Assembly: GCA_963737155.1 (NCBI GenBank)
Contig: CAVTRN010000002.1
Location: forward strand, 1,440,001 to 1,504,000
DNA from: Nitrospirota bacterium
GTDB lineage: Bacteria; Nitrospirota; UBA9217
DNA length: 64,000 nt
Reading direction: 5' to 3'
This document shows positions 27,296 through 63,269 of this stretch, in pieces. The notes under the pieces are model-generated. The model was not told the origin of the DNA. It made no database searches and saw only the letters and a program-made list of their open reading frames with translations. Position 1 is the first letter of the stretch. Each line of letters opens with the position of its first letter. Made by a program: the position numbers and the translations under genes.

Positions 27296-27459
27296 CCCGA
27301 CAGGGACTCTGGATCCTTCCATAAATGCGTCCCGATAATGTTTTTCGAGACGCATTATTATTAAACACGAGAGGGTTCGCGGCGTCAGTTAATGAGTATT
27401 ATGGTGCATCGTTTCATCGTAAAAAAGAAACAATGTCGCCTTGTGGAAAGGGAAATGCC

Positions 27460-28679: not shown

Positions 28680-28808
28680 TTTCACTCTTCAATTACTGTA
28701 GTATTGTAGCAAATTGCCGCGTTCATGATGAGCTTGTGCACGGGAGAATGCACATAAAAACTAAATTAGATGACGAGGATGATAGCAGCGTCATGGTTTA
28801 GATAAGAA

Positions 28809-30278: not shown

Positions 30279-31326
30279 CTACTTGTAGTCCTTTAGAATC
30301 TGTTTTAACTTTTATTACTTGGCGCGGATCAATAGTTGATACGTTCTATGCTATTTTTATGAAATCCTTGAAAGCGAAACAAGGTTGATGCTTGTGACCC
30401 ACCGAATAATAATACTGCCGTGTCGCGATGATCCTGCATTGGCGGCCAAAAACTAATAGATTTAAAGCCAAAATGACTAATCCACACTACGCCATGATTG
30501 AGCTATGTATTTCAATGCGTGATATTATAGCATTTTCATCACGAATCGAAACATTATTTTTTATAATAGTGAGTTCATAATAAATTGCTCAATTGTTAGT
30601 TTACCATCCACAATGCTGGCTAAGCTTTGATAATTAATGTGCGATTTGAGTAAAATCGTGATATATTATGGCATGCAAAGCTTTCTTTTTATGCGAAAAA
30701 ATGAGAGGGAGCTTCCAAAACTGCATGGAACTATTGTTGTGCCGTAAACTAAATACGTAACATGATCATGCCGGCATGGTGGTTGTGTGGAAAACGTTCA
30801 GCTTTAGAAGCATTGTGGTAATTTACTGCAGGGTGTCATCATCAGATAATAAAAGTAATTTGGGTATCGCAGAACAACGGCTTCTTGGTTTCCGCGCTGC
30901 AAAGGTATATACGGTTTCCCTTGTTATCAAAAGTGAGGCAGAAGACTACGGTAATTAGCTCGTGGATGAATGCGTCCCTCGCTTATTCATCCCAGGAATG
31001 TTCCCTATACGGATATGTAGTCTACGGGAGTAAAACCACTCGATCAAAATTTAAATGTATGTGTTGTTATACCGGCATTCAGGCCGGTATAAATGAAGCT
31101 CGTAATTACCATGTCAGAAATTCTGGCAAGGTCATCGACGTATCAGATAGCGCGAAGTCCGTCCTCCGTATTCCGATCGATAAGTTCCCGTCACGCAGGG
31201 AGTATAATATATAAGCCACTATGGGATGGCTTCGGGTTTATTATTTTCGAATTTCTGTTTAGCTGGATCGTCGGCACAGCCCAAAGGATCTATAGCTAGG
31301 AGTATTTTTCTAATAAATTCATTCTA

Positions 31327-31355
31327 TTGACTACGCTGTTTAAAATTATTATAAT
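31327..31355 (+). promoter_or_regulatory. Sigma70-type promoter
   Basis: TTGACT-17 bp-TATAAT upstream of 31445. Confidence 0.65.
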
Positions 31356-31444
31356 ACTCATTCTCGTTGCGCTGGGAATTTGGTCTTTAAGCAGCATAGC
31401 TCTATCAGCTCTTTAAGCAAACGATTCAACCTAGGTGAAGGACT

Positions 31445-43077: not shown

Positions 43078-43600
43078 ACAGGAAAGGGGTAAATGCCGTT
43101 TGTCACCTTCCGTAATGAGAATCTTAAGGTAGCGTTTCATCAGCTCTCGAATTGGCCAAGGCGATGTGTGAGGATATTAACCCTTCTGTTGGTTCCGAAG
43201 AAGAATAATTTTAATGGCAAGCTCCGGAGTCTTTTGACTGCCTTAAGCTTTGCGGAAGCCGACGGCTAGGAGACTGCGCGAGGGGTAATGTCCGCAGGTG
43301 CGGCTGACGGCTAAGACTGATATGGGAAAATGCTGGCAAGCCTCGTGGCAAAATATCGAAAGAAGAGCTTCCAGGTGGGTGTTGAGGAAGCGGATCTTAT
43401 CGCTGTATCGGGAATACCTAGTTTCCTGAAAGAATTTGCCGGGATTGGCAGGGTCGTCCTGAGCCTGGCGTAACCGGTAGTGACAATTTCTAAGTCGGGG
43501 TCTTCACCGGCCTGTGCCGATAGCGGCCCGACCGATTGCATCCATGACTCTGCAGGACTGAGATGGAACATTTTGAAGGGTGGCATCAGTGCATGTTTGA
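43078..43600 (+). pseudogene. Decayed duplicate of the 40171-40671 gene
   Basis: Shared blocks TTTGTCAC, ATGAGAATCTT, CGAATTGGCCAAGGCGATGT, AAGAAGAATAAT, GGTCGT.CTGAGCC; ATG replaced by ACA; stops and frameshifts. Confidence 0.85.
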
Positions 43601-43677
43601 GAGAACAGACTATTCAGCGCTGGACATTAAATAGAAATCGGCATTACTCTAAAACCAAGAGAAAAGGAGTAAACATA

Positions 43678-44607
43678 ATGTATCTTTATTTACCGGTAGC
43701 ACTGACAAGCATGAATATCTTAATTCCTGTCGGACTTGGTTTGGCGGTGGGGCTTTTATCCGGTCTCTTTGGAGTCGGAGGGGGATTTCTTCTGACGCCG
43801 CTTCTTATCATGTTCGGAATCCCGTCGACCGTTGCCGCAGCAACAGATTCTAACCAAATCGTCGCCGCCTCCACATCAGGTACCTACGCTCACTGGAAGG
43901 TTGGCAATGTGGACTTTAAAATGGGGATTTACCTTCTGGTCGGCGGGTTCGTAGGTGGCATCGTAGGCGTCCAGGCAATCAAGGTCCTGCACGCCATGGG
44001 CAACGCCGATTTCGTGATAAAGATGACCTATGTGCTAATGCTCGGGATTGTCGGCTCCTATATGTTCGTTGAAAGCCTTCAAAGCATGCACAAGAAAAAA
44101 GGCGCGGTAGTTGATAAGGTCAAAACAAGTGAAAAGGAATCGACAGTTGGAAAGTTCATGAAATCTCTGCCGCTTCAGACCCGATTCGAGAAGTCGGGAG
44201 TAACCCACTCAGCCTTGGTGCCGGTGGTGCTCGGTGCATTTGTTGGCGTCCTGGCCGCGATCATGGGGGTGGGCGGTGGTTTCCTGATGGTGCCGGTGAT
44301 GGTGTACATGCTCAGAATGCCGATGCACGTGGTGGTCGGAACTAGTCTGTTCCAGATCCTCTTTACCTGCATCGAGGTTACCTTTCTTCAGGCTTACACG
44401 AACCATAGCGTCGATTTCATGCTGGCAGTGCTCCTTCTAGTAGGTTCGACCCTCGGGGCACAGGTCGGCACCGTGTTGGGGAAAAAGCTGAAAGGCGAAC
44501 AGCTAAAGATTCTGCTCGCCTGTATTGTGCTTGTTGTGACCGTTAAGATCATTTTCGAATTGACGCTGACTCCATCATTATTGCTTTCACAAGTAGGAGG
44601 GCACTAA
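43678..44607 (+). CDS. TauE/SafE (sulfite exporter) family membrane protein
   Basis: MYLYLPVA start with AAGGAG RBS; duplicated GVGGGF(L)xxP motif. Confidence 0.92.
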   Translation: MYLYLPVALTSMNILIPVGLGLAVGLLSGLFGVGGGFLLTPLLIMFGIPSTVAAATDSNQIVAASTSGTYAHWKVGNVDFKMGIYLLVGGFVGGIVGVQAIKVLHAMGNADFVIKMTYVLMLGIVGSYMFVESLQSMHKKKGAVVDKVKTSEKESTVGKFMKSLPLQTRFEKSGVTHSALVPVVLGAFVGVLAAIMGVGGGFLMVPVMVYMLRMPMHVVVGTSLFQILFTCIEVTFLQAYTNHSVDFMLAVLLLVGSTLGAQVGTVLGKKLKGEQLKILLACIVLVVTVKIIFELTLTPSLLLSQVGGH

Positions 44608-44609
44608 TC

Positions 44610-45443
44610 ATGTACCTCCACTTCTTAAGTCCCCTGATCCATTCTCTGAGATTTATCTGCAATGCCAGATTGTTCGGATTCATATCTCTGGCGCTGGTTT
44701 TTTCCGTGCTGCAACTTGCAGACGCCACACCCGCTTCGGCCATGCTCACGGCAACGGCGAATCATGATCACATCAAGATAGATTTCCTTTATCACGGTAG
44801 CAATGTAAGCATAAAGGGCGAATCAGACTCCGGTGTGGATCTGGTCATTAAGATAACCTCACCCGAGGGAGAGCAGACGCTGAAAAAGAAGGGCAAGGTC
44901 GGCGGTATACTCTGGATGAATGTCGGCAAGCTAACATTCGAGAAAACTCCAAATTTCTACGAAGTTTTCAGCACAAAAAATATCGAAGACATCCTGAGCA
45001 ATGAGGAAATGGAAAAATACGTGATCGGATATCCTGCGCTGCAAAAACATATTGAGATAAAACCGGTCGCAAATAACGTGGAGAAGGCCACCTGGTTTAA
45101 CGAGTTCGTTAAATTTAAGGAAAACTCCAAAGTATACGCTACGTCTTCTGGCAAGATAACGACGAAATCGGCCAATGGACGGCAGGAATACTATATTGAT
45201 ACCGACTGGCCTTACCAGGCCGAGCCCGACGATTATCTGATCACGGTCTATGCCGTGAAGAATAGCAAAGTTGTGGAACAGGCAGAGTCGAAGGTGAAAG
45301 TCGAACAGATCGGAGTAGTCAAGACATTGGCGACGATGGCGAAGAACAATGCAGCCTTGTATGGGTTACTTTCCATCGGCATTGCGCTGGGCGCAGGTTT
45401 CGGTGTTGGTCTGGTGTTCGGAAAGGGCGGAGGTTCTCATTGA
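44610..45443 (+). CDS. TIGR02186-like periplasmic protein with C-terminal anchor (usual TauE partner)
   Basis: I.IDF.YHG..V.I.G, KKKGKVGGILWMN, C-terminal LYG...A..AG TM. Confidence 0.8.
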   Translation: MYLHFLSPLIHSLRFICNARLFGFISLALVFSVLQLADATPASAMLTATANHDHIKIDFLYHGSNVSIKGESDSGVDLVIKITSPEGEQTLKKKGKVGGILWMNVGKLTFEKTPNFYEVFSTKNIEDILSNEEMEKYVIGYPALQKHIEIKPVANNVEKATWFNEFVKFKENSKVYATSSGKITTKSANGRQEYYIDTDWPYQAEPDDYLITVYAVKNSKVVEQAESKVKVEQIGVVKTLATMAKNNAALYGLLSIGIALGAGFGVGLVFGKGGGSH

Positions 45444-46306
45444 TGTATAACTCAATCGTTGTAGGGTTCGACGAGTCTGAGTCAAGCAAAGCGGCGCTGA
45501 AAGAGGCTTCACTCAGAGTGAAAAATCATGGAGGAAAACTCTTCTTGGTTCATGCGGTCTATTTCGACAAGGAAGAGTTCACGACTCTCCCATCTCAAAT
45601 GGAAAAGCGTTTTGAGATCGGCACAAAGGTCTGCCTTGATGCGAGACAGAATCTCCATGATGATTTTGGACTGGACAGTAGAGTCGAGTCGGTCATCTGC
45701 GAGGGAGAACCGTCCGATGTAATCGTGGAAATTGCCCAGGGGAAAAAGGCTGAGCTTATTGCACTCGGTACCTACGGCAGGAAGGGGCTGAAAAGGCTGC
45801 TCATGGGCAGTGTGACGTCGCGGGTCATCCTGAACGCACCCTGCGATGTGCTGGTGGTCAAGAAAACCTGCCCCCAGTGCAGCGGCAGCTACCACTCCCT
45901 GCTAGTTGCTTTTGACGGATCTGAATCTAGCAAGAAAGCGCTGACAAAGGCTTGCGACCTTGCAAAAGTTGACGGCGCGGATGTATCGGTCCAATATGTC
46001 ATCCCCCGCTACGAGGAGATGATGGATTTCTTCAAGACCGAGTCGGTCAAAAAGAGCCTCTTCGAGGAAGCAGAAAAAATCGTAGATGGAGCGAAAAAGA
46101 TCTCGGCGGGCCTGGGGGTTTCAATCAAGACCGTAGTTCAAGAAGGCCACGCTGCTGAAAAGATTGTGGAGTTTGCCGATACAATGAAGCACGACTTGAT
46201 CGTCGTGGGCACCCATGGTTGGCGCGGCGTTAACAAGGCGCTCATGGGGAGCACGGCGGAACGGGTCATTGCTCATGCTTCATGTCCCATACTGATCACG
46301 AGGTGA
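45443..46306 (+). CDS. Tandem-domain universal stress protein
   Basis: Two USP domains: IVVGFD.SE.S, LIALG.YGR.GL..LLMGSV; LVAFDGSE.S, DLIVVGTHG..MGSTAE. Confidence 0.93.
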   Translation: MYNSIVVGFDESESSKAALKEASLRVKNHGGKLFLVHAVYFDKEEFTTLPSQMEKRFEIGTKVCLDARQNLHDDFGLDSRVESVICEGEPSDVIVEIAQGKKAELIALGTYGRKGLKRLLMGSVTSRVILNAPCDVLVVKKTCPQCSGSYHSLLVAFDGSESSKKALTKACDLAKVDGADVSVQYVIPRYEEMMDFFKTESVKKSLFEEAEKIVDGAKKISAGLGVSIKTVVQEGHAAEKIVEFADTMKHDLIVVGTHGWRGVNKALMGSTAERVIAHASCPILITR

Positions 46307-46312
46307 TTGAGT

Positions 46313-46715
46313 ATGAAGGGTTATAGAAAGGCCCTTTATCGCATTAACCGGCTCGCAGGAGGTTCTGAAACAGGGTATCACGCTTGTCTAGGATGGGAAA
46401 ACGCGAATAACCGTCGTAAAGGTGGTCCGGACCCTTATGAAGGGGACCTGAAGGGAATCAAGAACCTGCACGACGTCCTGGATGACAACGGAGCGCGGGT
46501 CCCTTCCGACGTCACAAGCCGAAGGGTGCTCATCAAAACGCGATTTGAGCAGGAAGTGTCGGGAAGAATTGCCGGGATCTTGGAGTAGGGAAAATGCAAT
46601 CTCCTCACTATGGGGTTTAAGATGAAAACATGCATACTGAGTAGGCTCTTCGTCGATCAGATCGTCGAAAAAATCATTGACCCCGCGCCGTGTCTGGTTT
46701 ATGTTATTGTATGGA
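46313..46715 (+). pseudogene. Second, single-domain USP gene, decayed
   Basis: MKGYRK / LIALTGSQEVLKQG / PYEGDL.GIKN / CNLLTMG...LF..IVEKII..APC.V.VI across shifts and stops. Confidence 0.65.
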
Positions 46716-46792
46716 GGGGCGACGCGCCATCTCCTGTTCGGCGTGCGAACAAAACAGGATATTAAACAATATGCTGATAAAGGGTGCACGTT

Positions 46793-46981
46793 ATGTTTGA
46801 AAGATTGTTGCAGCCAATGCAACTGATTCTTATCCTGTTGATCGTCCTGATCATTTTCGGTCCAGGGAAGCTCCACGAACTCGGCGCAGGACTGGGAAAA
46901 AGTGTTAGAGAATTCAAGAATGCCATGAAAGAAGGTCAGGAGACAGCGGTGATCGAAAATAAAGAAGAGAAGAAAGTCTGA
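46793..46981 (+). CDS. tatA: TatA/E twin-arginine translocase subunit
   Basis: LILILLIVLIIFGPGKL.ELG.GLGKSVREFK. Confidence 0.9.
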   Translation: MFERLLQPMQLILILLIVLIIFGPGKLHELGAGLGKSVREFKNAMKEGQETAVIENKEEKKV

Positions 46982-47211
46982 TCTGCGCAGTGTGAATGCT
47001 TTAAAAAGCAGTGGATAACGATAGTGGGTTCCCTAAGGAGAATCAATCAACAAGAGAGTTCTGGGGAATTGTTCCGACTGATCCAGATCGTTATCGTTCG
47101 CCCGGCGCTTTTCTCGGGAGGTGCGAAATGCACCATCCCATTTCTTAAGACGCATATATGCGTGCTTGTTAAAAACCGTATTCCACTGATCACAGCACAT
47201 GGTGAAAATTT

Positions 47212-48855
47212 ATGATAAAGAAAAAATTCGGAAGAATTCTGAGACTCAAGATTTTTTCTGAGGACGAACTGGAGAAGTTTGCTGGGGAATCAAAGGCGTC
47301 CGGGGTGCCGCTGGAAGAACTTCTGATCAGCAAGGGCATAAGTAAGCACGAAATTCTGTTCTGTCTATCTGAATTCTATGGACTGCCATTCGTGGAATAC
47401 GCTGAAAGCGTTGTCGCTTCCTATTTCCTGGTTCTGCGGCTTGATCTGGAGCATCTCAAAAAGAACCTATGGTTTCCGCTTTCGGTTCGGGAAAAACAGG
47501 CCGAGGTAATTGCCTATCGTCCTGACGACCCTCGCGTGGAGGAGGAGATCAAGAAAACCCTGGGGGTAGAGCAGGTCAATTTCAGGGTCGCGCTTCCCTC
47601 AGACATCATCCGCATTATAGAGCACAATTTCGATGTAAATCCCTATTTCTGTATTTCCGGCGGTAGAACGCCGCTTGCGCGGGTGAGGACACTGTTCGCC
47701 TACCGGCGGTCCACGTATGCTCATTACCGCACTTTGTTCGCCAAAGGGAGGACTGGTCTCGCTTTTATCAGGACCGGTGTCTCCTTTATCGTAATTGCGC
47801 TTCTATTCATGCGCGTGCTGGGGTTTGGTTTTTACGCCATTCTTGAAACGCCGCTCATGATCGCTGGTCTCATTATGGTTTTCGATGGGACCAAATGGTA
47901 CCTTCCCGCACGGCGGATCGCCGATAAACCAATTGACGCGACATGTACAGAGGCGACCTGGGGTACCCGCGTGTTGAATGCCGAGTTAAACGATGGACCT
48001 CCCAAGTTCAGCCGGACAGAAAAAGTGAAGGGCTCGGCGGAGCTGAGGGCCGATTGGGAAAACCTGTCGCCCGTCATGAGACGCAGGTTCCTTGCAAGCG
48101 ACCGGACTGATATGGCCGAGGAGCGGACCTCACTTGCTGGCCACCGGACAAAACTCGCTAGGGCACGTACCGGCCTCGCTTTTACACGCACCGGTATCGC
48201 TTTCACCGGTCTCGGCATTGGGTTGATGAGGCAGTTTCAAGAAAGCCGATGGACGATCTTGGACGTCGTGCTTATCGTCATCGGAGTGCTCATGTCCGCG
48301 GAGGGATTCCATTGGTACTTCGGTGGCAGAAAGGCCGGAATCGAGGGATTGCGAACTGTGCTCGAAGTGCTGAACAAGGAAACCATCTGGGATTTGGTGT
48401 TTCCTCCAGGGCACAAACGATCTGGGCCCAAAAAGGACAAGGCCGGTCCGGCGGTCACCGCTGACCAGAAACCAGGCATCTGGGCAACAACAGGTCTTGC
48501 TCTCGAACGTACGGTGCTTGCCGACCGGCGGGGCGTTATGGCGAGGCTCCGCACGGTCATGGCGGTGTCGCGGACGGGTTTCTCCTATGTCCGAACCGGT
48601 ATGAGTATAACATCCGTGGGCGCCGGCCTCATGGCATATTTCGGCACAGCCTCCATCGGCTGGACGGTTTTCAACGTACTGCTGATCATCGGCGGTCTCC
48701 TCCTGATTGCGGACGGATATCGTTGGGTCCTACCGGCGGAACGTATGAGAAAAGAATATCCCTATTGTTACGGAGATATGGAAATAACCATTCCCGATTA
48801 TGGGAAACCAGCTGTCGAATGGGGGACGGTTATTTTTAATAACTATGAAGAGTGA
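47212..48855 (+). CDS. MshEN/GspE-N-like domain + three DUF202-like membrane repeats
   Basis: N-terminal LEELL..KGIS..EIL..LSEFYGLPFVE and WFPL..V...PDD; three RTG(L/F)(A/S)(F/Y)xRTG + two-TM modules. Confidence 0.8.
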   Translation: MIKKKFGRILRLKIFSEDELEKFAGESKASGVPLEELLISKGISKHEILFCLSEFYGLPFVEYAESVVASYFLVLRLDLEHLKKNLWFPLSVREKQAEVIAYRPDDPRVEEEIKKTLGVEQVNFRVALPSDIIRIIEHNFDVNPYFCISGGRTPLARVRTLFAYRRSTYAHYRTLFAKGRTGLAFIRTGVSFIVIALLFMRVLGFGFYAILETPLMIAGLIMVFDGTKWYLPARRIADKPIDATCTEATWGTRVLNAELNDGPPKFSRTEKVKGSAELRADWENLSPVMRRRFLASDRTDMAEERTSLAGHRTKLARARTGLAFTRTGIAFTGLGIGLMRQFQESRWTILDVVLIVIGVLMSAEGFHWYFGGRKAGIEGLRTVLEVLNKETIWDLVFPPGHKRSGPKKDKAGPAVTADQKPGIWATTGLALERTVLADRRGVMARLRTVMAVSRTGFSYVRTGMSITSVGAGLMAYFGTASIGWTVFNVLLIIGGLLLIADGYRWVLPAERMRKEYPYCYGDMEITIPDYGKPAVEWGTVIFNNYEE

Positions 48856-50086
48856 GTTGATGAACGGCGATCTCGCGGATGATGTGGTGCGGCAGAGTTC
48901 GGAATTTTCGATCCTGGTAGAACGGGGGATTCTGAGCCAAGCGGAACTTGAGGAGGCGATAAGCACGGCTCAGGCTCGCGGGATCGAACTCGAAAAAGTC
49001 CTGCTCAGTGAATTCAGCGTGGCGAAACGGCATCTGCTTGATGCGCTGGCCGCATACTATCGCTGTGATTCCATCGAATACGATGAGCGTCTGCCGATTC
49101 CACCTGAGCTTCTGGCTATGCTCGACCAGGATTCACCTTCTTCATACCAATGGATGCCAGTGATGAAAGACAAATCAGGAACCGTGGTCATTGCAGCGAG
49201 AAATCCCGAAAGTCCCGAGATGCGTGAGGAGGTCAGAAAATATGTGATAGCGGACCGTTACGAATTCCGGGTCTCCCTTGATGCCGACATCCAATGGTAT
49301 ATCCAGGATTTCCTCCATGACAAGGTGGGACTTTTGATAGGAACGGAGCGCACCGGGTTGGCCTATTGGCGAAATACCATGGCGCAGTGGCGCACGAGGA
49401 TGGCCTGTTACCGGACGGATCTCGCGAATGCACGAACTGGCTTGGCCTTCCTCCGATGGGGTCTGGGGACAATCGCATTATCGAACGCGCTCCTGAAATC
49501 CAAAAACATTGCATACCATCCTGTTGTCTATTTCTCAGTTCTCACCGTCGGGATCGTTATCGCTTTTTACGGGCTGCCGATCTATTTGAATATTCGGAAA
49601 TCCCGATTGACTCCGCCCGGGCACCAGACGCTGGTGGAGGTAACGGCGACAACGATCCAATTCCTTGAGAATTATCATTTTATCGAGAACACAGGGGGTA
49701 AACAGGAGATGCAGGGGACGATGCTTGCGAGGATGGGTGATTATCTTGCCGATTACAGCACCTATCTAAACCCGACTCCATCCTCCAAGACCCGCACGAT
49801 GTTCGCGCGCGAACGGAACGTTCTGGCCGCCCAGCGGACGATCGCGGCCTGCTACCGGACCATCTATGCCCGCGCACGAACTGGGCTGGCGTTTATCCGG
49901 ACCGGCATTTCCTTTCTGAGTATCGGTATTGGTATCCTGGGGTATTTCGGGTTCGGTTTGCTTACGTCCTTCAACCTCTGGCTTATGGCCGCTGGCATTC
50001 TGATGCTCGTAGACGGAGTGCTCTGGTACTGGCCGGTTCGGAAGGAACAGGGTGAAGCACCGAGGGGCATCGCATATCCGGAATGA
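48845..50086 (+). CDS. MshEN/GspE-N-like domain + two DUF202-like membrane repeats (paralogue of the upstream gene)
   Basis: ILVERGILSQAELEEA..LEKVLL..LLDALA.YY; two RTGLAF.R.G + two-TM modules; ATG 48845 overlaps the upstream stop by 11 nt. Confidence 0.8.
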   Translation: MKSELMNGDLADDVVRQSSEFSILVERGILSQAELEEAISTAQARGIELEKVLLSEFSVAKRHLLDALAAYYRCDSIEYDERLPIPPELLAMLDQDSPSSYQWMPVMKDKSGTVVIAARNPESPEMREEVRKYVIADRYEFRVSLDADIQWYIQDFLHDKVGLLIGTERTGLAYWRNTMAQWRTRMACYRTDLANARTGLAFLRWGLGTIALSNALLKSKNIAYHPVVYFSVLTVGIVIAFYGLPIYLNIRKSRLTPPGHQTLVEVTATTIQFLENYHFIENTGGKQEMQGTMLARMGDYLADYSTYLNPTPSSKTRTMFARERNVLAAQRTIAACYRTIYARARTGLAFIRTGISFLSIGIGILGYFGFGLLTSFNLWLMAAGILMLVDGVLWYWPVRKEQGEAPRGIAYPE

Positions 50087-50105
50087 GTGCAGTTTAGACT
50101 GCACT
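50086..50105 (+). terminator. Perfect hairpin at the stop codon (possible terminator or stabiliser)
   Basis: AGTGCAGT-ttag-ACTGCACT; no clear U tract. Confidence 0.4.
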
Positions 50106-50123
50106 GAATTATATAAAAAAAGC

Positions 50124-50311
50124 AAAGAAGGACGACATAGAATCGGTTACCTTCGATACTCATGCTACTAAAAGATATGAATGTAATGGCTCATGGTTTC
50201 GGATGCTTTAGGTTTGGAGACTGGAATCATTTTACTACTTCGGGCAAATTGGACTCTGAAACCCAAAAGCACTTATCGGAATGTATTCAGGGTGCCTGGC
50301 AATAGGTATTT
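50124..50311 (+). repeat. Dispersed repeat R1, copy b
   Basis: Similar to 40931-41119. Confidence 0.85.
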
Positions 50312-50473
50312 TTTTAGCCAATAACTCCGCAACAATTTTATCTCCCCTTGAAAACTAATTAGAAAGCTGATAATTATCCCCTCTATTGCATCCTGAACAA
50401 TTCGCATTCAATAAAGTGGTCGATTTTGTGTTAAAACTTATATGGAAATATATAAAAGATAGAAGGTACAGCA

Positions 50474-50790
50474 ATGAAGCACCGTAGTGCTCTGCCACAA
50501 TATGAGTGGAGGTGCTGATCTAAATCAGCTCAAATAATTCACGACAAACCACAACTTGTTGGTAGCCTGGTGGAGATGACCAATATGTGTGGAAAGCCCA
50601 AATGCAAATACACGAACAGCAAGAAACACAGATCGTAGTGCATTGCGGGACGGCAGGAAAAAAACGAAAAATGATTCATATCCGGCATTGGCTGAAAACG
50701 CTGATTTCCAGGGGCTAAGGGTCTATCAGGAGCCTGGGGAGCAGATGAAAGCCATCAATCAAGCCTTCCGCGTATTCTTCCGATGAAACA
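50474..50790 (+). pseudogene. Remnant of a DUF6788-like IS accessory gene
   Basis: GSLVEM..MCGKPKCK....KH motif followed by K.KMIHI; several stops. Confidence 0.55.
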
Positions 50791-50854
50791 AAGCAAGCGG
50801 GTAGACATTCTCCGGAGACTATTTATTACGCCAACAAGGTGTTGAATAGTCTTG

Positions 50855-50992
50855 GAGATAAATTTATTTTGCTTTTCAAACAAATATGTTAAAATGAGCT
50901 ATCATGAAAGCGATAGGATGCAAATTGCCATTTTGCGAGTAGTCCGATATCCGTCGTCCCTCATTGAGGGGAACTTTCCAGCATGGAGTTGT
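50855..50992 (+). repeat. Dispersed repeat R2, copy b (contains extended -10 TGtTAAAAT)
   Basis: Similar to 42798-42936. Confidence 0.85.
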
Positions 50993-51486
50993 GGCTCATC
51001 AGAATGAAATGCTCGATAGTACAGATATTGGGATCAGGCATCAGTCAGATCGAAAACAACAAGATTGTAGCCATTGTTCCGAAAGAGGAGATACGACTGA
51101 TCAAACTTTCCCATGATTCACGATCCCGCCACCCCTTTCTGCGGTTTCTCGCAGGGTTTGTCCTGATGGTGACGGGGCTGATCCTGCTCCTAGCGGAGTT
51201 CATTGTCGCAGAAGGCGGTATCGTGTTCCTTCAGATGAAATCGTTTGTCTTCGGTTTTCCCATCGTACCCATCCTTCTCTGGACCATGGTTGGCGTGGGT
51301 GCCTGGCTCTTGATCGGGGTCTTCCGTGGACGATACAATTTTCTAATCAAGACCGATCGGGGCATGCGGAAAATATTCTTCGAGGAGTCGGCCGATATCC
51401 GGGAGATTCGGGAAATCATCACCAGAGCGAAGAATGAGTTCGGGTATGATATCGATGTCACGCTCTTGGATTCCATGCATTTTTAG
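50983..51486 (+). CDS. Hypothetical two-TM membrane protein
   Basis: Open frame with two hydrophobic segments, co-oriented with the downstream kinase. Confidence 0.7.
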   Translation: MELWLIRMKCSIVQILGSGISQIENNKIVAIVPKEEIRLIKLSHDSRSRHPFLRFLAGFVLMVTGLILLLAEFIVAEGGIVFLQMKSFVFGFPIVPILLWTMVGVGAWLLIGVFRGRYNFLIKTDRGMRKIFFEESADIREIREIITRAKNEFGYDIDVTLLDSMHF

Positions 51487-51542
51487 AATGTATCGGATAG
51501 GCAGGTCTCCGGCAAGGGAGTTCGACCCGGGTTTATCAACGA

Positions 51543-52976
51543 ATGAAAATCGAAAACAAACTGTTCATTTCGAACATCATCAACGGGGCATTCATAATAC
51601 TGATCGGTCTGTTTGCGTTTCAGAACATGAATCTCGTTCTAACGAAACTCAGATTTGTGGAAATCGCCGACGACCTGAATGCATCGTTTCTGACCATGCG
51701 GCTCTCGGAAAAAAACTATTTTCTCTACCACGACCGTAAAGCGCTGTCGGAGATACGCGAGAAGATCTCAACGACCTTGGAAACCATCAGCAGTGTACGA
51801 GAGGATATTTTTCGAGCAATAGGCGAAACTGACCTCAATAACTTGGTGACACGTCTGACGGTCTACTCAACGGTTGTCGAACAAACACGAAAGGAGAATA
51901 ACTGGGATCCGCGTATGGAGGCGCGTCTCAGGGAGGAGGGGAAAAAGTTAAGGGAATTCTCCGATTCCATCACGCACCTCGAGCGCAGACGCGTAAACGA
52001 CATCATCCTGAGTTCGAAACGGATTCTGCTATATTCCTTCTGGGCCATACTGGCATTGGCGCTTTTTATAAGCCGTTTTATTTCGGAGAAAATTGTCCGC
52101 TCTCTCCGCGCAATTGAAAAGATGACCAAATCCATATCGGAAGGGAATTTTCATCGGATAGGAGGGCACCGGACGAGGGACGAACTTGACTCGGTCATAA
52201 CGGCAATCAACTCCATGTCCGAGGAGCTTGCGCACCGCGAGGAACAGATTATACAGTCCAAGAAACTTGCCTCGCTCGGCATACTGACAGCGGGCGTGGC
52301 CCATGAAATCACGAACCCGCTGAACAACATCTCCATGATTGCACAAACCTTTGATGAACTGTACGCGCAATTGAACGAGAAGGACCGCCGCGAATTCATG
52401 AGCAAGGTGGACGCGGAAACGGAACGCATCAGAAAGATCGTGAAGAACCTACTAGATTTTTCTAAACCCAAGGATTCGATTCTGAAAGAAGCGGATATCA
52501 ACAAGGTGATCCAGAAGGCCCTTACGCTGGTTCAGAACATGATCGACGTGCAGAATATCAGTACAACAGTGACGCTTGGAGACGGCATTCCCCATCTCTA
52601 TATCGACGAGGACCAGATCCAGCAGGTGCTAGTGAATCTCGTGACGAATGCGATCCAGGCTATGTCGTCAGGCGAAAGGCTGTTTATCGCATCGAGGCTC
52701 GGCAAAGACCGGGATTCAGTCGAGATTTCGGTGATGGACACGGGCAAAGGCATAACTCCTGAGTTTCTTCCCCATATTTTCGATCCTTTTTTCAGCACCA
52801 AGGGCGAGGGGGGAACCGGTCTGGGACTTTCAGTTAGTTATGGTATTATTAAACATCACAAGGGCGAAATCAGGGTAGAAAGCAAAGTGGGGGTCGGCAC
52901 GACCTTTACTATAGAATTGCCGAGCTATCATCCAGAGGAGAATAATGATGGACAAACACAGAATCATGATCATTGA
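51543..52976 (+). CDS. Membrane sensor histidine kinase with HAMP (paralogue of 35741)
   Basis: RLSEKNYFLY, DELD...INSM, AHEITNPL, NLVTNA, GTGLGL. Confidence 0.95.
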   Translation: MKIENKLFISNIINGAFIILIGLFAFQNMNLVLTKLRFVEIADDLNASFLTMRLSEKNYFLYHDRKALSEIREKISTTLETISSVREDIFRAIGETDLNNLVTRLTVYSTVVEQTRKENNWDPRMEARLREEGKKLREFSDSITHLERRRVNDIILSSKRILLYSFWAILALALFISRFISEKIVRSLRAIEKMTKSISEGNFHRIGGHRTRDELDSVITAINSMSEELAHREEQIIQSKKLASLGILTAGVAHEITNPLNNISMIAQTFDELYAQLNEKDRREFMSKVDAETERIRKIVKNLLDFSKPKDSILKEADINKVIQKALTLVQNMIDVQNISTTVTLGDGIPHLYIDEDQIQQVLVNLVTNAIQAMSSGERLFIASRLGKDRDSVEISVMDTGKGITPEFLPHIFDPFFSTKGEGGTGLGLSVSYGIIKHHKGEIRVESKVGVGTTFTIELPSYHPEENNDGQTQNHDH

Positions 52977-53316
52977 TGATGAGAAGATCGTGGGTGACAT
53001 GGCGAAAATGTCGCTCGAACACGAAGGATACGAAGTGGAGACCTTCCTGAACGCCGAGCCGGCGCTTGCACGGCTCAAGGAACAGAAATTCCATGTTGTC
53101 GTCACCGATTACAAGATGAAGGGCATCGACGGAATGGAGGTGCTCAAAACCGTGAAAAAAGAGTATCCCGGTACCACAGTGATTATGATTACCGCTTTCG
53201 CGAACCTCGATGCGGCAATCGAAGCGCTGCGCGGCGATGTGCACGATTTTTTCCCCAAGCCGGTCAAGATCAAGGAACTGAAGGAGTCTATCCGGCGGGC
53301 GCTGAGCAAGGCATGA
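52945..53316 (+). CDS. Single-domain response regulator
   Basis: IIDDE, TDYKM, ITAF, KP. Confidence 0.93.
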   Translation: MMDKHRIMIIDDEKIVGDMAKMSLEHEGYEVETFLNAEPALARLKEQKFHVVVTDYKMKGIDGMEVLKTVKKEYPGTTVIMITAFANLDAAIEALRGDVHDFFPKPVKIKELKESIRRALSKA

Positions 53317-53384: not shown

Positions 53385-55976
53385 GTGAAACAGCCAGTGC
53401 GCATACAATCATTCTTTTCCTCTCTGTTACGAACGTTTTCGCGCAGGAAAACCATGGGCAGCCGTGAGGAATTCAAAGCAGCCTTCGAGCGTTTTAAAAG
53501 TGTACTCGACAGCAACAACCGGGCCTTGGAAACCATAACGGATATGGGAGAAAAACTGGGCGGAGACTATCTTTTTGACATTGTTTACCTCAAAAAAGCC
53601 TATACTCGCCTGAAAGAAGACATGACGTTCTCCCTCAGAAGCTTCGATGAACTCACGCAGAACCGCTATCAGCGGCTGCATGATGTATTCGGCTACCTCG
53701 ATTCCCTGGTCATGCGCATGGTGGATGAAACGCCGCTCCCAGCCCCGCCGTTGGTGCTGTCTCTTGAAAGTATTTCCTGGGGAACGCCGCACGACGTGGG
53801 CGGCAAAAACGCGCATCTTGCGGAGGTGAGAAACCAGCTTGGCCTCAACGTCCCCGATGGTTTTGTTGTTACGACGTCTGCATTTGACGCGTTCATTAGA
53901 TTCAACAACCTGGAAAGTCATATTGAAAGAATTAAACAAATAGCCGCTACCAATGATGCAGGTCTCCAGGAACTGCAGGAGCTCATCCTTCAAGGCCCCT
54001 TCCCGCCTGAGTTAAGTCTTACCATGAAAAAAGCCCTGGAAGTGATCAAGTCACGTTATGGAGAATGTTTTCTGGCGATCAGGAGCAGCGCCGAAGAAGA
54101 AGACAGCGGCAGCTCCTTTGCCGGCCAGTTTAAAACCATCCTGAACGTCCCACTCTCGCAGGAATCTGTGGAGCGGGCATACCGGGAGGTGATCGCAAGC
54201 CTCTTTTCGAGCAAGGCTGTTTCTTATCAGCGGCAGACCGGTTATGACATTGGGTCATTTAAAATGGCCGTCGGCTGTCTGGTCATGGTCGACTCGGCTT
54301 CGAGCGGCGTTGTTTATTCGACAATGCCGGAAGGGGACAACGGCACACTGATCATCAGCGCAGCCTGGGGCTTGGGGGAAGCCATTGTCGAAGGGAAAAT
54401 CGAAACCGACATCTCCATCGTTCGGAAGGAAAAGAAACCAGTCCTGCTCCAAACAGCAACGGGAAACAAGAGTACCATGATTGTCGGGAACGTGAAAGGC
54501 GGGATCATCGAGGTCAATACCCCTGAGGACCTCAGGCAGAAGCCATGCCTTTCGTCTGAGCAAGTAACGGAGCTCGCCACACTGGCGATAGCCATCGAAC
54601 GTTACTTCGGCTCTCCGCAGGACATAGAATGGGCCATGGATAAGAGGGGCGCCCTTTTCATTCTCCAGGCACGGCCGCTGAAAGTGAAGGCAAAAAGCTT
54701 GCAATCCGAAGATATTCTGACAGAGAATTCCGTTTCAGATGCCATACATCCGGCAATCCTGCGCGATCAAGGGTTCGTGGTTCAGAGAGGCGCGGGAGCA
54801 GGAAAGATTTTCGTCGTAACAAATCCCTCTGACAGCATGATACTGCCAAAAGGTGCTGTTCTGGTAGCGAAACACGATTCATCGCTCTTTGTCAGAATAA
54901 TGCCTTACGTATCGGCGATCATCACGGAAACGGGCTCGCAGACCAGCCACATGGCCGCGCTCTGCAGGGAGTTGAAAATTCCGACAATTGTAAATGTTCC
55001 GAACGCGATGGAGATCCTGAAACATGGACAGGATATTACCGTCATCGCTGGAAACGACAACAAAATGTCGGTATACCGTGGAATTATCCGAGATGTACTC
55101 ATGAAGTCGGGACAGGATTTTAGCCGGATGGAGGACGTCTATGAGTTTCGTAAAAAACGGTATATGCTGAGATATCTTTCTCCCCTGAACCTTATTGATC
55201 CGCTCATGGATGAGTTCACCCCCGAGCGCTGCAGAACCATGCACGACATCCTCCGTTTCATGCATGAGAAAGCCGTAGCCGAACTGGTGGAGCGCGCGCG
55301 GGGAGGAAGTGCAACCCTCAAAAAGCGCGGCGCGGTCACGCGGCTTGACCTTCCCGTGCCAGCGGGGATTCTTGTCATGGATATGGGCGGCGGCCTGGAG
55401 CTGAGCGGACGAGATGGAGCGGCGACCTTCGACCAGATCACCTCGATTCCCTTCCGGGCGATCATAGGGGGAATGATTCGTCCGGGTGCATGGCATTCCG
55501 ATGCCGTAGCACTCAAAACGAGTGATTTTTTATCGAGCATGATGCGGATGCCAGACATTACGAATACCACAGACAGTACGGCGGGATACAATGTAGCGAT
55601 TATCTCACGGGAATATGTGAACATGAGCATCAGGTTCGGATACCATTTCAACATGGTGGACTGCTATAGCAGCGAGACGACGAAAAACAACCACATATAT
55701 TTTCGTTTTGCCGGAGGGGCAACGGACTTGACAAAGCGGTCGAGGAGGCTAGAACTCATCGCACGGGTTCTCACTTCATACGGTTTCAATATTAAAATAA
55801 AGGGAGACCTTCTAATTGCCCGACTTGCTGGGATCAATCAGACGGAAATGGGAAAAGTGCTCGACCAGACCGGTCGTTTAATTGCCTTCGCCCGTCAGCT
55901 CGATGCCGTGCTTCATGACGATGCCGCTGTCGAACGGTATGCTAACAATTTTCTTGACGGCACTTATGAATTATGA
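53385..55976 (+). CDS. PEP synthase/dikinase-like protein (ATP-grasp + phospho-His domain + non-canonical C-terminus)
   Basis: VGGK, AIRSSA..ED..SFAGQF, GLGE, PQDIEWA, ILQARP, TSHMAALCRE. Confidence 0.9.
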   Translation: MKQPVRIQSFFSSLLRTFSRRKTMGSREEFKAAFERFKSVLDSNNRALETITDMGEKLGGDYLFDIVYLKKAYTRLKEDMTFSLRSFDELTQNRYQRLHDVFGYLDSLVMRMVDETPLPAPPLVLSLESISWGTPHDVGGKNAHLAEVRNQLGLNVPDGFVVTTSAFDAFIRFNNLESHIERIKQIAATNDAGLQELQELILQGPFPPELSLTMKKALEVIKSRYGECFLAIRSSAEEEDSGSSFAGQFKTILNVPLSQESVERAYREVIASLFSSKAVSYQRQTGYDIGSFKMAVGCLVMVDSASSGVVYSTMPEGDNGTLIISAAWGLGEAIVEGKIETDISIVRKEKKPVLLQTATGNKSTMIVGNVKGGIIEVNTPEDLRQKPCLSSEQVTELATLAIAIERYFGSPQDIEWAMDKRGALFILQARPLKVKAKSLQSEDILTENSVSDAIHPAILRDQGFVVQRGAGAGKIFVVTNPSDSMILPKGAVLVAKHDSSLFVRIMPYVSAIITETGSQTSHMAALCRELKIPTIVNVPNAMEILKHGQDITVIAGNDNKMSVYRGIIRDVLMKSGQDFSRMEDVYEFRKKRYMLRYLSPLNLIDPLMDEFTPERCRTMHDILRFMHEKAVAELVERARGGSATLKKRGAVTRLDLPVPAGILVMDMGGGLELSGRDGAATFDQITSIPFRAIIGGMIRPGAWHSDAVALKTSDFLSSMMRMPDITNTTDSTAGYNVAIISREYVNMSIRFGYHFNMVDCYSSETTKNNHIYFRFAGGATDLTKRSRRLELIARVLTSYGFNIKIKGDLLIARLAGINQTEMGKVLDQTGRLIAFARQLDAVLHDDAAVERYANNFLDGTYEL

Positions 55977-60050: not shown

Positions 60051-62306
60051 TTATGTCGTCAACCTCCGATAGATTTCCGTTATCTTGTTCGGCAGCTTGG
60101 ATACGTCATCGATCAGGGTATAGTTAACCTCGCCGTACATGTGCGGAAGATAGGATTGAGCCTCCCTGTCTATGGTAATGCAAAAGGGGTGGATGCCCTG
60201 ATGGCGCGCCTCCAAGAGCGCTTTTCTGGTGTCCTCGATGCCGTACTCGCCTTTATAGGCGTCCCAGTCCTCGGGTTTGCCATCGCTCAGGGTGATAAGA
60301 AGTTTTGTTCTCGCTTCGACCGCTTTGAGAATTTTCGCGGAGTGCCGAATAAAAGGCCCCATGCGCGTGTAGTCCTTGGGCTCTATCCCGGCAATGCGCC
60401 GTTTAACGCTATCTGCATAAGGTTCATCAAAGCCTTTCACCCGGTAAAGATCGCACCGGTTCCTCGTCATTCCCGAGAACCCGTACACCGCGTAGCGGTC
60501 TCCGAGCGTCTCAAGCGCTTCGGCCATTAGAACCAAGGACTCCTTCTCTGCTTTGTTTACCCATCCCTTGGTGGATCCACTCATATCGATGAGGAAGAGC
60601 ACCGCGATATTCCGCTCAGACCGGTCGAGTCTGGTAAAGAGATTCTCCGTCGGCGATATGCCTGCGCGCGCGTCTGAGAAAGCTTCAACTACTGCATCAA
60701 TATCGATGTCGTGGCCGTCTTTCTGCCGGCGCTGGTTCTGCGGTTCCTGCTTCAGGTACTCGAACTTCTTGCGGAGAATATTTACATATCCGCCGTACCG
60801 CGTGAGCGTCTGTTCCACAACCGGTTCATGCCCAGGATGAATGATGTGCTCATAGAGGCTGCACCAGTTTTTTTTATAACCTCCCCGTTTGTAGTCCCAT
60901 TCATCGTATTTGATTCCGCTACTTTCTGTCCCTGCAACTTCTTCCTCTTTGATGAGATCAATGAGTTTTGATGGGCTGTAGCCGCTCAACTCGCTCCCCT
61001 TGACCAGTATGCCACCGGGGACGCCTCCGCGCTTCTCGATTACCCGTTTCAGTTCCTCATCCAGTTCTATCAGCCTTCCCTTGATCAGGAGATATTCCTT
61101 CTTCGCATCAGGCATGCTCTTCTGGGTAACAGGATCTGCGGACCGCCAGTCCCGCTGGACGGGATCTGGCAAATCAATCAGCTTCGTAATCATGGCATCG
61201 AGCTTGGTGTGGAACCTCTGCTTCTGCTCGTCGAGCGTACGTGATACCTGTTCCGGATGTATTCTTCCGAAAAATGGAAGGGGCTGTCGCGGCTGATAAT
61301 CACCGGCAAGGCACGTCGCTGCGTTATACAGACGCATTAGGCTTTCAAGGCTATTATCAAGTCCGGTGCCATAAGCTGGGAATTGAAGTATTCCGATGGA
61401 ATTCGTGAATGCTGGGGGAACCACTCCTTTAGACCAAGATCCAAAGAAATGCTGGTAAAGCGCTTCCACGAATGTTTCTTTTTCGGATAAGGCGTCAAGT
61501 GCGGGCCTATTCTTCGACAGGGCAGACAGAACTATGTCAATCTGATTCATGAGTCCGGGAAGCTCTTTTCTGAGGAACTGATTAAGCCTGAACGCCTCTA
61601 TTATCGTATATAGGTCTACGGCCAGATCATGGTCGGGAAATAGAGAAAAAAAGATGTTAATGTCGGGGTGGTCCAGGGGATAGTCCTTAAAACAACGCGT
61701 AAGCACTGTAACATCTACGTCCAGAGTAAGAGTGCCCTGGGATATTTGCGCCCATGCATATGCTGCAGAGAGCTTGTAAACAAGGATATTTTTCGATTGA
61801 TCTCGAAATTGATTCACGACACAAGGGAAAAAAACGGTAGCGGTGTTCGTGTACTGTTCTCGGTCGCAGGAAACCTTGAGATCAATCCCCGACATTCCTC
61901 GCAGGAACGTCCCGAGCATTGCGGCCACTTCGATAAAATGAACTCCTTCCGGGGATATGAATGCTGCGAGCTCTGCATCGTCCGTCTTCCCGAGGAAGGT
62001 TAGAGCGTGGTCGATTCCCTGTGAGTCTAGCAGGTCGAAGGCCGTACTCACCCATTTGTCCAGTTCTTCGAGCGCCAGATACGTTCCGGCTTTTCTGAGG
62101 TGGGAGAGAACTCGGGGTACTAGTGAAGAACTGGCGCTCGAAAGGGCAAGACAGAGGGCGAGCACCTTCTGTTGAGCTGGTTGTTCGAAGGTGTTAATCT
62201 CCCTGAGGACATTCTGGATCTCCTCCTCTTCAAAGAAGTCGAGTCCTAAGTTCCTGACGAGACCCGCGCAGAGATCCCTGGTTTGTTTATCGGAGATGTG
62301 TTTCAT
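60051..62306 (-). CDS. CbbO/NorD-family VWA adaptor protein
   Basis: YDEWDY, DG.DID.DA, MIDAS DMSGST, YTRMG..IRH, LSDGKP.D, YGIEDTR.AL. Confidence 0.92.
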   Translation of the reverse strand: MKHISDKQTRDLCAGLVRNLGLDFFEEEEIQNVLREINTFEQPAQQKVLALCLALSSASSSLVPRVLSHLRKAGTYLALEELDKWVSTAFDLLDSQGIDHALTFLGKTDDAELAAFISPEGVHFIEVAAMLGTFLRGMSGIDLKVSCDREQYTNTATVFFPCVVNQFRDQSKNILVYKLSAAYAWAQISQGTLTLDVDVTVLTRCFKDYPLDHPDINIFFSLFPDHDLAVDLYTIIEAFRLNQFLRKELPGLMNQIDIVLSALSKNRPALDALSEKETFVEALYQHFFGSWSKGVVPPAFTNSIGILQFPAYGTGLDNSLESLMRLYNAATCLAGDYQPRQPLPFFGRIHPEQVSRTLDEQKQRFHTKLDAMITKLIDLPDPVQRDWRSADPVTQKSMPDAKKEYLLIKGRLIELDEELKRVIEKRGGVPGGILVKGSELSGYSPSKLIDLIKEEEVAGTESSGIKYDEWDYKRGGYKKNWCSLYEHIIHPGHEPVVEQTLTRYGGYVNILRKKFEYLKQEPQNQRRQKDGHDIDIDAVVEAFSDARAGISPTENLFTRLDRSERNIAVLFLIDMSGSTKGWVNKAEKESLVLMAEALETLGDRYAVYGFSGMTRNRCDLYRVKGFDEPYADSVKRRIAGIEPKDYTRMGPFIRHSAKILKAVEARTKLLITLSDGKPEDWDAYKGEYGIEDTRKALLEARHQGIHPFCITIDREAQSYLPHMYGEVNYTLIDDVSKLPNKITEIYRRLTT

Positions 62307-62456
62307 CGAATAATAATTTGCCGAGAAAGCATCAAGGCACAGAAAAAATGCCACCGTGAAAATTGCCTTGGATAGGACAGAATGTATGGCCCTGGAACGT
62401 AAAAGACGCAGTATTCCCCTCTGTATTTAAGCATCGAGGCATGCCCCCAGGAAAAA

Positions 62457-63269
62457 TCAATACAGCGAACTAATGATCTCCGCAAGCGACCCTAGCATTT
62501 CATGGTCGTCAGTGAGCGGTTCGGCTACGGCCGCTTCGCAGGCTTTTTGTGGCTCGATACCGGCTGTGATCAGTTTCCCCGCGTGGATCAACAGCCGTGT
62601 GCTTGCCCCCTCGGTCAGCCCTCGGTCCTTGAGATTCCGCGTCTTTTCGGCAAAGCTCACGAGCCGTTTCGCTGTGTCCTCGTCCACATCGGACTCGTGC
62701 ATCACGATTTCAGCTTCAAGTTCCTTGTGGGGATATGTAAACTCCATGGCGAGGAACCGCTGGCGGGTACTCTGTTTCAGGTCCTTAAGCGCGCTCTGGT
62801 AACCTGGATTGTAGGAGATAGCGATCAAAAATTCGGGCGGTGCGTGCAGAACTTCGCTCTTCTTCTCAATAGAGAGAATTCTTCGGTCGTCGGCCAAGGG
62901 ATGGATGACCACGGTTGTATCTTTCCGCGCCTCCACGATTTCGTCGAGGTAGCAGAACCCGCCCGCCTTCACCGCCGTCGTGAGGGGGCCGTCCATCCAG
63001 ACCGTTTCCCCACCGTGTACGAGGTAGCGGCCCACGAGGTCCGAGGCCGTGAGATCGTCGTGACACGAGACAGTTATGAGTGGACGCCTGAGCTTCCAGG
63101 CCATGTGCTGCATGAAACGCGTCTTACCGCAGCCCGTGGGCCCCTTCAGGAGCACGGGGATCTGGTGCCGATACGCCGATTCAAAAAGTGCCACTTCCTT
63201 CCCTACGGGAAGATAAAAGGGCTCTTCCGTGATTAGATATTGCCGGAGTTTTGACTTGATTGTCTTCAT
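62457..63269 (-). CDS. CbbQ/NirQ/NorQ-family MoxR AAA+ ATPase
   Basis: LKGPTGCGKTRF, CHDDLTASDLVGR, YLDEIVEARKDT, SYNPGYQ, STRLL. Confidence 0.95.
   Translation of the reverse strand: MKTIKSKLRQYLITEEPFYLPVGKEVALFESAYRHQIPVLLKGPTGCGKTRFMQHMAWKLRRPLITVSCHDDLTASDLVGRYLVHGGETVWMDGPLTTAVKAGGFCYLDEIVEARKDTTVVIHPLADDRRILSIEKKSEVLHAPPEFLIAISYNPGYQSALKDLKQSTRQRFLAMEFTYPHKELEAEIVMHESDVDEDTAKRLVSFAEKTRNLKDRGLTEGASTRLLIHAGKLITAGIEPQKACEAAVAEPLTDDHEMLGSLAEIISSLY

Follow-up and report, generated by a model that had tools for sequence, protein, structure and literature searches.

A paired 3+2 set of DUF202 hairpin modules in a Nitrospirota genome: a candidate pseudo-five-fold, VTC-like membrane ring

The analysed window, a stretch of 64,000 nucleotides from a Nitrospirota bacterium (GenBank assembly GCA_963737155.1, contig CAVTRN010000002.1, positions 1,440,001 to 1,504,000), contains two adjacent paralogous genes, here called A and B, that encode membrane proteins with three and two copies, respectively, of one DUF202 hairpin module behind an N-terminal domain of the MshEN/GSPII fold. 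We propose that A and B form a 1:1 pseudo-five-fold ring that passes or binds an anion or a linear polyanion and works with a histidine kinase, a lone receiver protein and a dikinase encoded nearby, a reading to which we assign a probability of about 0.55. The architecture belongs to the DUF202/VTC channel type in a form not described in the searchable literature, an assignment that is well supported in silico, and from it we infer a transport function. To our knowledge, DUF202 is widespread in prokaryotes with no established function, and the one member whose role is understood is the pore of the eukaryotic polyphosphate machinery. Neither the function of a bacterial DUF202 protein nor a fusion of MshEN with DUF202 was found described in the searchable literature.

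The two paralogous open reading frames (ORFs) and the five module starts, first proposed from the nucleotide sequence, were recovered at the same positions (Table 1). Hidden Markov model searches, which the original prediction had suggested, identified both families in both proteins. In A, Pfam MshEN covers residues 56-141 (E = 2.9e-11) and DUF202 three stretches (E = 9.4e-16), and in B, MshEN covers residues 81-159 (E = 3.9e-9) and DUF202 two stretches (E = 1.2e-7). The scores against PF02656, 58.5 bits for A and 32.5 bits for B, lie above the curated cut-off of 23.4 and place both proteins in the DUF202 family. When the whole genome was scanned in six frames, every module matched PF02656 singly, with 29.2, 26.6, 25.0 and 23.8 bits above the cut-off line and, for B module 2 alone, 22.5 bits, 0.9 bits below it; the predicted count of three plus two copies is thereby upheld. 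Residues 3-383 of A align with residues 18-409 of B at 30% identity (E = 3.7e-46), so that A corresponds to B plus one extra module. The 11-nt overlap of the two genes, also part of the original prediction, holds for a B start at ATG 48845 (413 aa) but not if translation begins at the in-frame ATG 48860, 4 nt past the A stop, which yields 408 aa, the length of many B homologues.

Through alignment of the five modules, which required a single 2-residue loop insertion, 15 columns were found to be identical in all five copies. Residues 1-36 of every module consist of five heptads of the form (L)A-x-x-R-T-x, with Arg at heptad position d in 25 of 25 cases and Ala at position a in 24 of 25 (five modules with five heptads each). 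The d-position arginines are residues 159/166/173/180/187, 298/305/312/319/326 and 433/440/447/454/461 of A and 176/183/190/197/204 and 324/331/338/345/352 of B. All 25 are invariant columns in alignments of 97 A-type proteins (down to 59% identity) and 92 B-type proteins (down to 64% identity), and they would supply the basic rings expected on the pore helix of a VTC-type channel. The net charge of the five stalks taken together is +32. The basic ladder reaches the membrane face at Arg36, the a/d positions continue into the first transmembrane (TM) helix, TM1, as Ser, Ala and Gly, and module index 50, towards the outer end, is occupied in the five copies by Arg, Arg, Ala, Lys and Gly. The motif (A/S)RTG(L/F)(A/S)(F/Y)x R(T/W)G recurs in each of the five modules, where it lines up with NERTxxAWxRTG in a broad DUF202 profile described below; the closing (D/E/Y)G..(W/I)(Y/V) motif noticed earlier was likewise seen in the alignment. 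AlphaFold2 (AF2) models of A (predicted local distance difference test, pLDDT, 80.9; predicted template modelling score, pTM, 0.69) and B (pLDDT 75.2, pTM 0.49) present each module as a hairpin with a helix of 48-57 residues and a second of 27-40 residues, and they agree with hydropathy on the two membrane spans per module that had been predicted. Given two spans per module and cytoplasmic N-domains, all modules would have the same orientation and all linkers would be cytoplasmic.

The A:B complex was modelled from A residues 145-547 and B residues 160-413 at 1:1 stoichiometry, with an own alignment for each chain. It reached an interface score (ipSAE) of 0.69 (0.68, 0.70 and 0.69 in three runs), compared with 0.00 for the best of three controls, and at least 84% of the contacts were common to the runs, with a partner pLDDT of at least 62. 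In the calibration of this score, 58 of 80 solved complexes and 2 of 110 mismatched pairs attain the same mark, figures that apply only roughly here, where own alignments were supplied. The 1:1 model is a confident one, and its contacts agree with the five-helix bundle that the original prediction had anticipated. In the modelled interface, A 152-202 contacts B 316-366 and A 429-475 contacts B 166-216: B module 2 packs on A module 1 and B module 1 on A module 3, and A module 2 takes no part. When the listed contacts were mapped to heptads, both seams were found to use the g,a,c,d face of the earlier module and the a,b,d,e face of the later one. Because these helix faces are complementary and B touches only A1 and A3, the modules would close into one ring in the order A1-A2-A3-B1-B2 with an Ala/Arg core. 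According to the model, these 1:1 contacts complete a five-module ring with the first helices in the centre.

The 3+2 pairing, for which the original prediction had asked for a survey, is nearly constant among homologues. Three modules were counted in 120 of 120 listed A-type homologues and two modules in 120 of 120 listed B-type homologues. A full A-type gene is present in 51 of 301 sampled genomes of the phylum, and all 30 loci fetched from this sample have a three-module ORF followed directly by a two-module ORF (with B frameshifted in one). Of 80 loci found by a contig search and labelled nearly all as Nitrospirota, Thermodesulfovibrionales, Sulfobium or Dissulfurispiraceae, 72 are 3+2, one has a frameshifted B and two are cut by contig ends; because the 30-locus and 80-locus sets share genomes, and the genomes are related, the counts are not independent. 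Tandem duplicates of A, 68-71% identical, were observed before a single B at five loci (L110, L116, L118, L138 and L115), an arrangement reminiscent of alternative large subunits.

A profile search against 1.84 billion representatives returned 2082 matches at E <= 1e-3. The first 110 of the 150 best representatives included 11 proteins with three modules and 10 with two; a five-module fusion of the A/B type was not found among them. Five-repeat chains, which the original prediction had also raised, do exist elsewhere: P0343 (476 aa) and P0370 (531 aa), each from a contig of 2 kb, are single chains with five DUF202 modules of two TM spans each; they share 29% identity and appear to be covalent pentamers. 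Furthermore, many single-module DUF202 proteins carry stalks of 3 to about 17 heptads. A single-module family with an LAxxRT stalk of up to 10-17 heptads was observed (P0262, P0265, P0267, P0275, P0270, P0345 and P0375), in which P0375 is soluble and has the same ERT heptads and no TM span.

Profile comparison also recovered the predicted homology to Vtc1, through an intermediate profile. The module profile matches a broad DUF202 profile with an hhalign probability of 99.3 (E = 2.1e-20); the latter was built from 18 sequences, namely the genome's own YidH-type protein and picked matches from the search of the representatives. This broad profile in turn matches the Vtc1 chains 9umg_B, 9umg_A, 8i6v_A and 7ytj_A over TM1-TM3 with E-values of 1.8e-5 to 4.6e-5, and Vtc4 and Vtc3 with E-values of just 0.28-0.87. 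In passages of PMC9911596 and bioRxiv 10.1101/2023.01.27.525886, the TM part of VTC is described as a 3:1:1 pentamer with three TM helices per subunit, the channel of which consists of five TM1 helices, bears K24 and R31 rings and narrows to 1.5 A at the R31 ring. In our alignments, the Arg of the ERT signature, R31 of Vtc1 (8i6v numbering), corresponds to module Arg29, and K24 to module Arg22. Only one further DUF202 gene was identified in the genome, a YidH-type ORF of 136 aa on the other contig (79 bits, three hydrophobic segments). It lies beside a MarC gene and 3.4 kb from a true PPDK on the other strand, a proximity that was judged to be chance. The one mention found that bears on YidH function is a D-alanine exporter screen in E. 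coli reported in PMC10299036, according to which YidH did not lower D-Ala levels.

In the arrangement that we propose, the paralogous inner-membrane proteins A and B would assemble 1:1, and the three hairpins of A and the two of B would close into the pseudo-five-fold ring in the order given above. The long first helix of each module would stand with about 30 residues as a cytoplasmic stalk and run on into TM1. The strict heptad, with Ala at a and Arg at d, suggests that the five first helices form a central bundle with five stacked rings of five arginines, below which TM1 would be lined at a/d by Ser, Ala and Gly. The ring axis would be the counterpart of the VTC TM1 pore, and module Arg29 that of the constriction residue R31 of Vtc1. 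Such a ring may offer an anion or a linear polyanion a passage or binding route through the cytoplasmic membrane and may cooperate with the neighbouring histidine kinase, lone receiver and PPDK_N-type dikinase.

Several observations weigh against this proposal. The pore geometry was derived from contact lists and not from coordinates, 1:1 is the sole stoichiometry modelled for A and B, and the model could owe something to the solved VTC structures. The A1-B2 seam keeps the register; the A3-B1 seam, between A 443-457 and B 180-194, is offset by about six residues (nearly one heptad), which may represent a staggered ring or a modelling artefact. Covariation analysis (mutual information with average product correction) of 83 unique A-B pairs revealed no enrichment at the predicted registers, which ranked 53 of 92 and 35 of 64 windows, in a set that is small and highly conserved and hence of low power, and in which four control helix pairs were likewise without enrichment. 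The module profile gave no VTC match when compared directly with the PDB sequences; for this reason the intermediate profile was used, and the link to Vtc1 depends on it. Searches with Foldseek (pdb) and VIA-align, made with the full A and B models, listed matches for the N-domain and to generic helix bundles only, and no VTC chain was among the matches listed for the membrane part. By hydropathy and AF2, each module has two TM spans, compared with three per unit in canonical Vtc1 and YidH. In the 80-locus set, four loci are 3+3+2 and one more has the same arrangement with the second A copy frameshifted. Additionally, no PPK1 (PF02503, PF13090), PPK2 (PF03976) or CYTH/TTM domain was found in the genome, which is 100% complete in two contigs, so that a polyphosphate substrate would lack a known source. 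The original prediction had named three outcomes that would speak against it: homologues commonly occurring alone or with repeat totals other than five, no confident A:B bundle in models, and no DUF202/Vtc1 homology by profile comparison. None of these was found, yet 5 of the 80 loci depart from the total of five.

Table 1. Positions of genes A and B, their domains and modules, and the neighbouring genes in the window
Feature	Positions	Strand	Description	Basis
Gene A	47212..48855	+	547 aa; N-terminal MshEN/GSPII-fold domain and three DUF202 hairpin modules	ORF, Pfam, AF2
A N-domain	47212..47649	+	residues 1-146, cytoplasmic, MshEN/GSPII fold	Foldseek
A module 1	47665..47931	+	Ala/Arg heptad stalk, TM1, short loop, TM2; helices 152-203, 209-237	alignment
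A module 2	48082..48366	+	helices 287-341, 348-387	alignment
A module 3	48487..48771	+	helices 421-477, 482-515	alignment
Gene B	48845..50086	+	413 aa; MshEN/GSPII-fold domain and two DUF202 hairpin modules	ORF, Pfam, AF2
B N-domain	48845..49324	+	residues 1-160, MshEN/GSPII fold	VIA-align, Foldseek
B module 1	49349..49624	+	helices 171-218, 226-252	alignment
B module 2	49793..50083	+	helices 319-368, 375-404	alignment
Permease and Usp genes	43480..46306	+	TauE/SafE-family permease, Alph_Pro_TM protein, tandem-Usp protein	Pfam
167-aa membrane protein	50983..51486	+	occasional cluster member	homologue in cluster in 7/20 loci
Sensor histidine kinase	51543..52976	+	two TM spans, HAMP, HisKA, HATPase_c	Pfam
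Stand-alone receiver	52945..53316	+	receiver domain protein, 123 aa	Pfam Response_reg, E 3.9e-27
Dikinase	53385..55976	+	863-aa enzyme, PPDK_N and PEP-utilizers (swivel His), C-terminal domain of about 300 aa	Pfam

The original prediction was confined to A and B and missed their conserved partners, the histidine kinase, the lone receiver and the PPDK_N-type dikinase. In a comparison of 20 loci with 8 kb of flank, the recurrent gene order was TauE-family permease, Alph_Pro_TM, tandem Usp, (small Usp), A, B, (167-aa membrane protein), histidine kinase, lone receiver and 863-aa enzyme. The kinase-receiver-dikinase trio follows B in 16 of the 20 loci, TauE and Alph_Pro_TM are encoded upstream of A on the same strand in 15, and the lone receiver is 76-95% identical across 18. 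The 167-aa membrane protein has no match in Pfam or NCBIfam. The gap of about 900 bp between the tandem-Usp gene and A contains, at window positions 46307-46709, the remains of a small Usp gene that is intact (about 140 aa) in relatives; the match falls into two frames, with 49% identity over residues 1-140 and a second piece, which suggests that the remnant carries frameshifts. A promoter and terminator scan of 46200-51600 gave counts at chance level, and an Rfam search of the whole window returned one tRNA only, with no riboswitch near A or B.

The 863-aa enzyme matches the phosphoenolpyruvate (PEP) synthase models of NCBIfam only over their first 470 or so positions. Its C-terminal part of about 300 residues, in place of the PEP/pyruvate domain, has no Pfam family, and an Atlas search with it returned only unnamed or 'PEP-utilizing enzyme family' clusters. 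A CHASE3 hint for the sensor part of the kinase (Pfam, E = 0.045) and weak hints for the N- and C-terminal parts of the dikinase gave nothing usable. Orthologues of the C-terminal domain (E <= 1e-100) are present in 50 of the 301 phylum genomes, 46 of which also have A. A occurs without the dikinase in 5 of the 301 genomes (four of them fragmented or incomplete) and the dikinase without A in 4, and in at least four genomes the two genes are located on separate contigs. In three of the four dikinase-only genomes, a canonical YidH-type gene lies downstream of the dikinase, either immediately or at a distance of 3 kb. Two such genes lie directly downstream, in two genomes of one genus that have no A-B (L147, 2218-2619; L148, 1573-1977). 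In one of the dikinase-only genomes (G154; locus L145, G154:C2), the kinase, receiver and dikinase are present and A-B is absent, and the A-B slot is occupied at 11350-12279 by a second TauE-family permease, 65% identical to that of the window. Natural fusions were identified as well: P0270 combines a stalk and module with a receiver, and P0345 combines a module, a receiver-like stretch, PPDK_N and the swivel domain (four cluster members, one from a Deltaproteobacteria metagenome-assembled genome).

As the original prediction stated, no VTC polymerase domain is present in the window, and the search could be extended to the whole genome, in which no CYTH match was found; according to Pfam, neither A nor B contains a TTM/CYTH or SPX domain. 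The genome has one Ppx-GppA gene. Of the 301 phylum genomes, 51 have PPK1; among the 51 that bear A, just 2 do (G155 and G287). As a clue specific to A-B this scarcity was rejected, because family f1 has PPK1 in 1 of 63 genomes and the lack is lineage-wide. Three features favour an anion or a linear polyanion as the substrate: the ladder of arginines, the kinship with a polyphosphate pore and the neighbouring permease genes. The linkage to the dikinase leaves a synthesis-coupled mechanism open.

The N-terminal domains bring in the idea of a channel gated by cyclic di-GMP (c-di-GMP), in which nucleotide binding to the two MshEN domains would switch the pore between open and closed, by analogy with MshE, PilF and NfrB. 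Pfam places MshEN (PF05157) above its cut-off in both A and B, and the fold comparisons agree. The A domain matched PilF GSPII-B (8pdk_B, E = 1.6e-4, TMt 0.68) and MshE (5htl_B, TMt 0.74) in Foldseek; the B domain matched 5htl_B in Foldseek (E = 2.8e-4) and, in VIA-align, 5htl_B (Z 13.7, root-mean-square deviation 3.8, 139 aligned) and XpsE-N (2d28_C, Z 13.1). The best structural matches are the c-di-GMP-bound MshE and PilF GSPII-B. The B N-terminus also resembles weakly the N-terminal region of NfrB (NCBIfam) and the NCBIfam model c-di-GMP_motif (NF053729), the latter at 25.2 bits and hence below the cut-off of 38. The binding motif consists of two tandem 24-residue units of RLGxx(L/V/I)(L/V/I)xxG(L/V/I)(L/V/I)xxxxLxxxLxxQ. 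With the relaxed form of this motif from the Methods of PMC5013675, no exact match was found in any of the 97 A-type or 92 B-type sequences (0/97 and 0/92), and the best window per sequence agrees at 7-10 of the 11 constrained positions. In the divergent three-module representatives P0243, P0245, P0250 and P0251, the N-termini are about 30-50 residues shorter and seem to lack the four-helix subdomain in which the motif resides. The MshEN/GSPII fold also serves protein binding (XpsE-N, the PilB-N/PilZ complex), and the cluster showed no GGDEF or EAL gene. Gating of the A-B ring by c-di-GMP is therefore possible but unsupported, and we regard it as quite doubtful.

Rather unlikely, though to be weighed with more care, is an account that accepts the ring and denies it a transport path. 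The Arg-ladder stalk would then serve in the cytoplasm as a sensor or scaffold; having bound a small anion or a partner protein, it would pass that state on to the neighbouring kinase, receiver and dikinase, with the membrane part as an anchor. The tight linkage to these three genes and the receiver fused to the single-module relative P0270 fit such a role; the ERT heptads of P0375 indicate that the stalk can exist without a pore, and the small TM1 a/d residues could pack shut. However, in the homologous VTC ring the same positions line a channel, the ladder of A-B extends to the membrane face, with Arg or Lys at index 50 in three of the five modules, and in G154 it is a TauE-family permease that takes the A-B slot. 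We also consider it improbable that A and B form separate homo-oligomers or a larger mixed ring, the total of five being a coincidence of two duplications. The strict pairing in 120+120 proteins and about 100 loci argues against this, as do the overlapping or abutting genes, the contacts of B with exactly the two free edges of A through matching helix faces, the two five-module single-chain DUF202 proteins and the pentameric state of the solved homologue. Such assemblies could draw on the restriction of the modelling to 1:1, on the just 0.49 pTM of the B monomer, on the single-module relatives, which must homo-oligomerise, and on the 3+3+2 loci, in which the extra A copies can also be read as alternative subunits. 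More speculative, and in our view highly improbable, is the extension of the preferred reading in which the whole operon is a bacterial VTC analogue: the dikinase would make or load a linear phospho-polymer or polyanion and feed it to the A-B channel under the control of the kinase and receiver, in a lineage without PPK1, PPK2 and TTM polymerases.

Elsewhere in the window, positions 18000-32000 have a G+C content of 0.43-0.49, compared with about 0.50-0.54 on both sides; this region begins beside the only tRNA gene (18282-18365) and may be an acquired island. A 767-aa ORF at 60051-62354 (minus strand) has no Pfam match at E <= 1e-4 and is located just downstream of a CbbQ/NorQ-type AAA gene (62457-63269, minus strand).

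If the 1:1 ring proposed here is correct, A-B would be a natural, covalently linked version of the VTC pentamer, in which the stoichiometry is fixed at five together with the order of the units. It would expose an exaggerated and strictly conserved arginine ladder that is open to mutagenesis, flux assays and cryo-EM. The conserved partners (kinase, receiver, orphan dikinase and TauE-family permeases) would offer a handle on the cargo of a bacterial DUF202 ring, and they also bear on whether a VTC-like coupling of synthesis to translocation exists in bacteria.

Among known systems, the VTC pentamer (7ytj, 8i6v, 9umg) shares with the A-B model the DUF202 family, five units round one axis with the first helix lining it, and basic residues seven apart on that helix (K24 and R31 in VTC, Arg22 and Arg29 in the modules). 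Both are hetero-oligomers of paralogues, composed in VTC of three Vtc1 with Vtc3 or Vtc2 and Vtc4 (3+1+1) and in A-B as 3+2. Unlike VTC, A-B has its five units concatenated into two chains, a basic ladder lengthened to five predicted Arg rings on a cytoplasmic stalk, and MshEN/GSPII-fold N-domains instead of SPX and the TTM polymerase, and its host is bacterial whereas VTC is eukaryotic. The YidH-type single DUF202 proteins have in common with A and B the Pfam family and the ERT...RT signature, and many of their relatives carry multi-heptad stalks; they differ in having one module, usually with three TM spans, and no MshEN domain. The N-domains of MshE, PilF, XpsE, PilB and NfrB share their fold with those of A and B, and in NfrB, as in A and B, an MshEN-type domain is joined to a membrane protein and not to a secretion ATPase. 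In contrast to MshE-type receptors, the tandem c-di-GMP motifs are not conserved in A and B, and the attached module is DUF202. Finally, the 863-aa enzyme resembles dikinases of the PEP synthase, PPDK and rifampicin phosphotransferase type in its ATP-grasp PPDK_N domain and swivelling His domain, and differs in having no PEP/pyruvate-binding domain.

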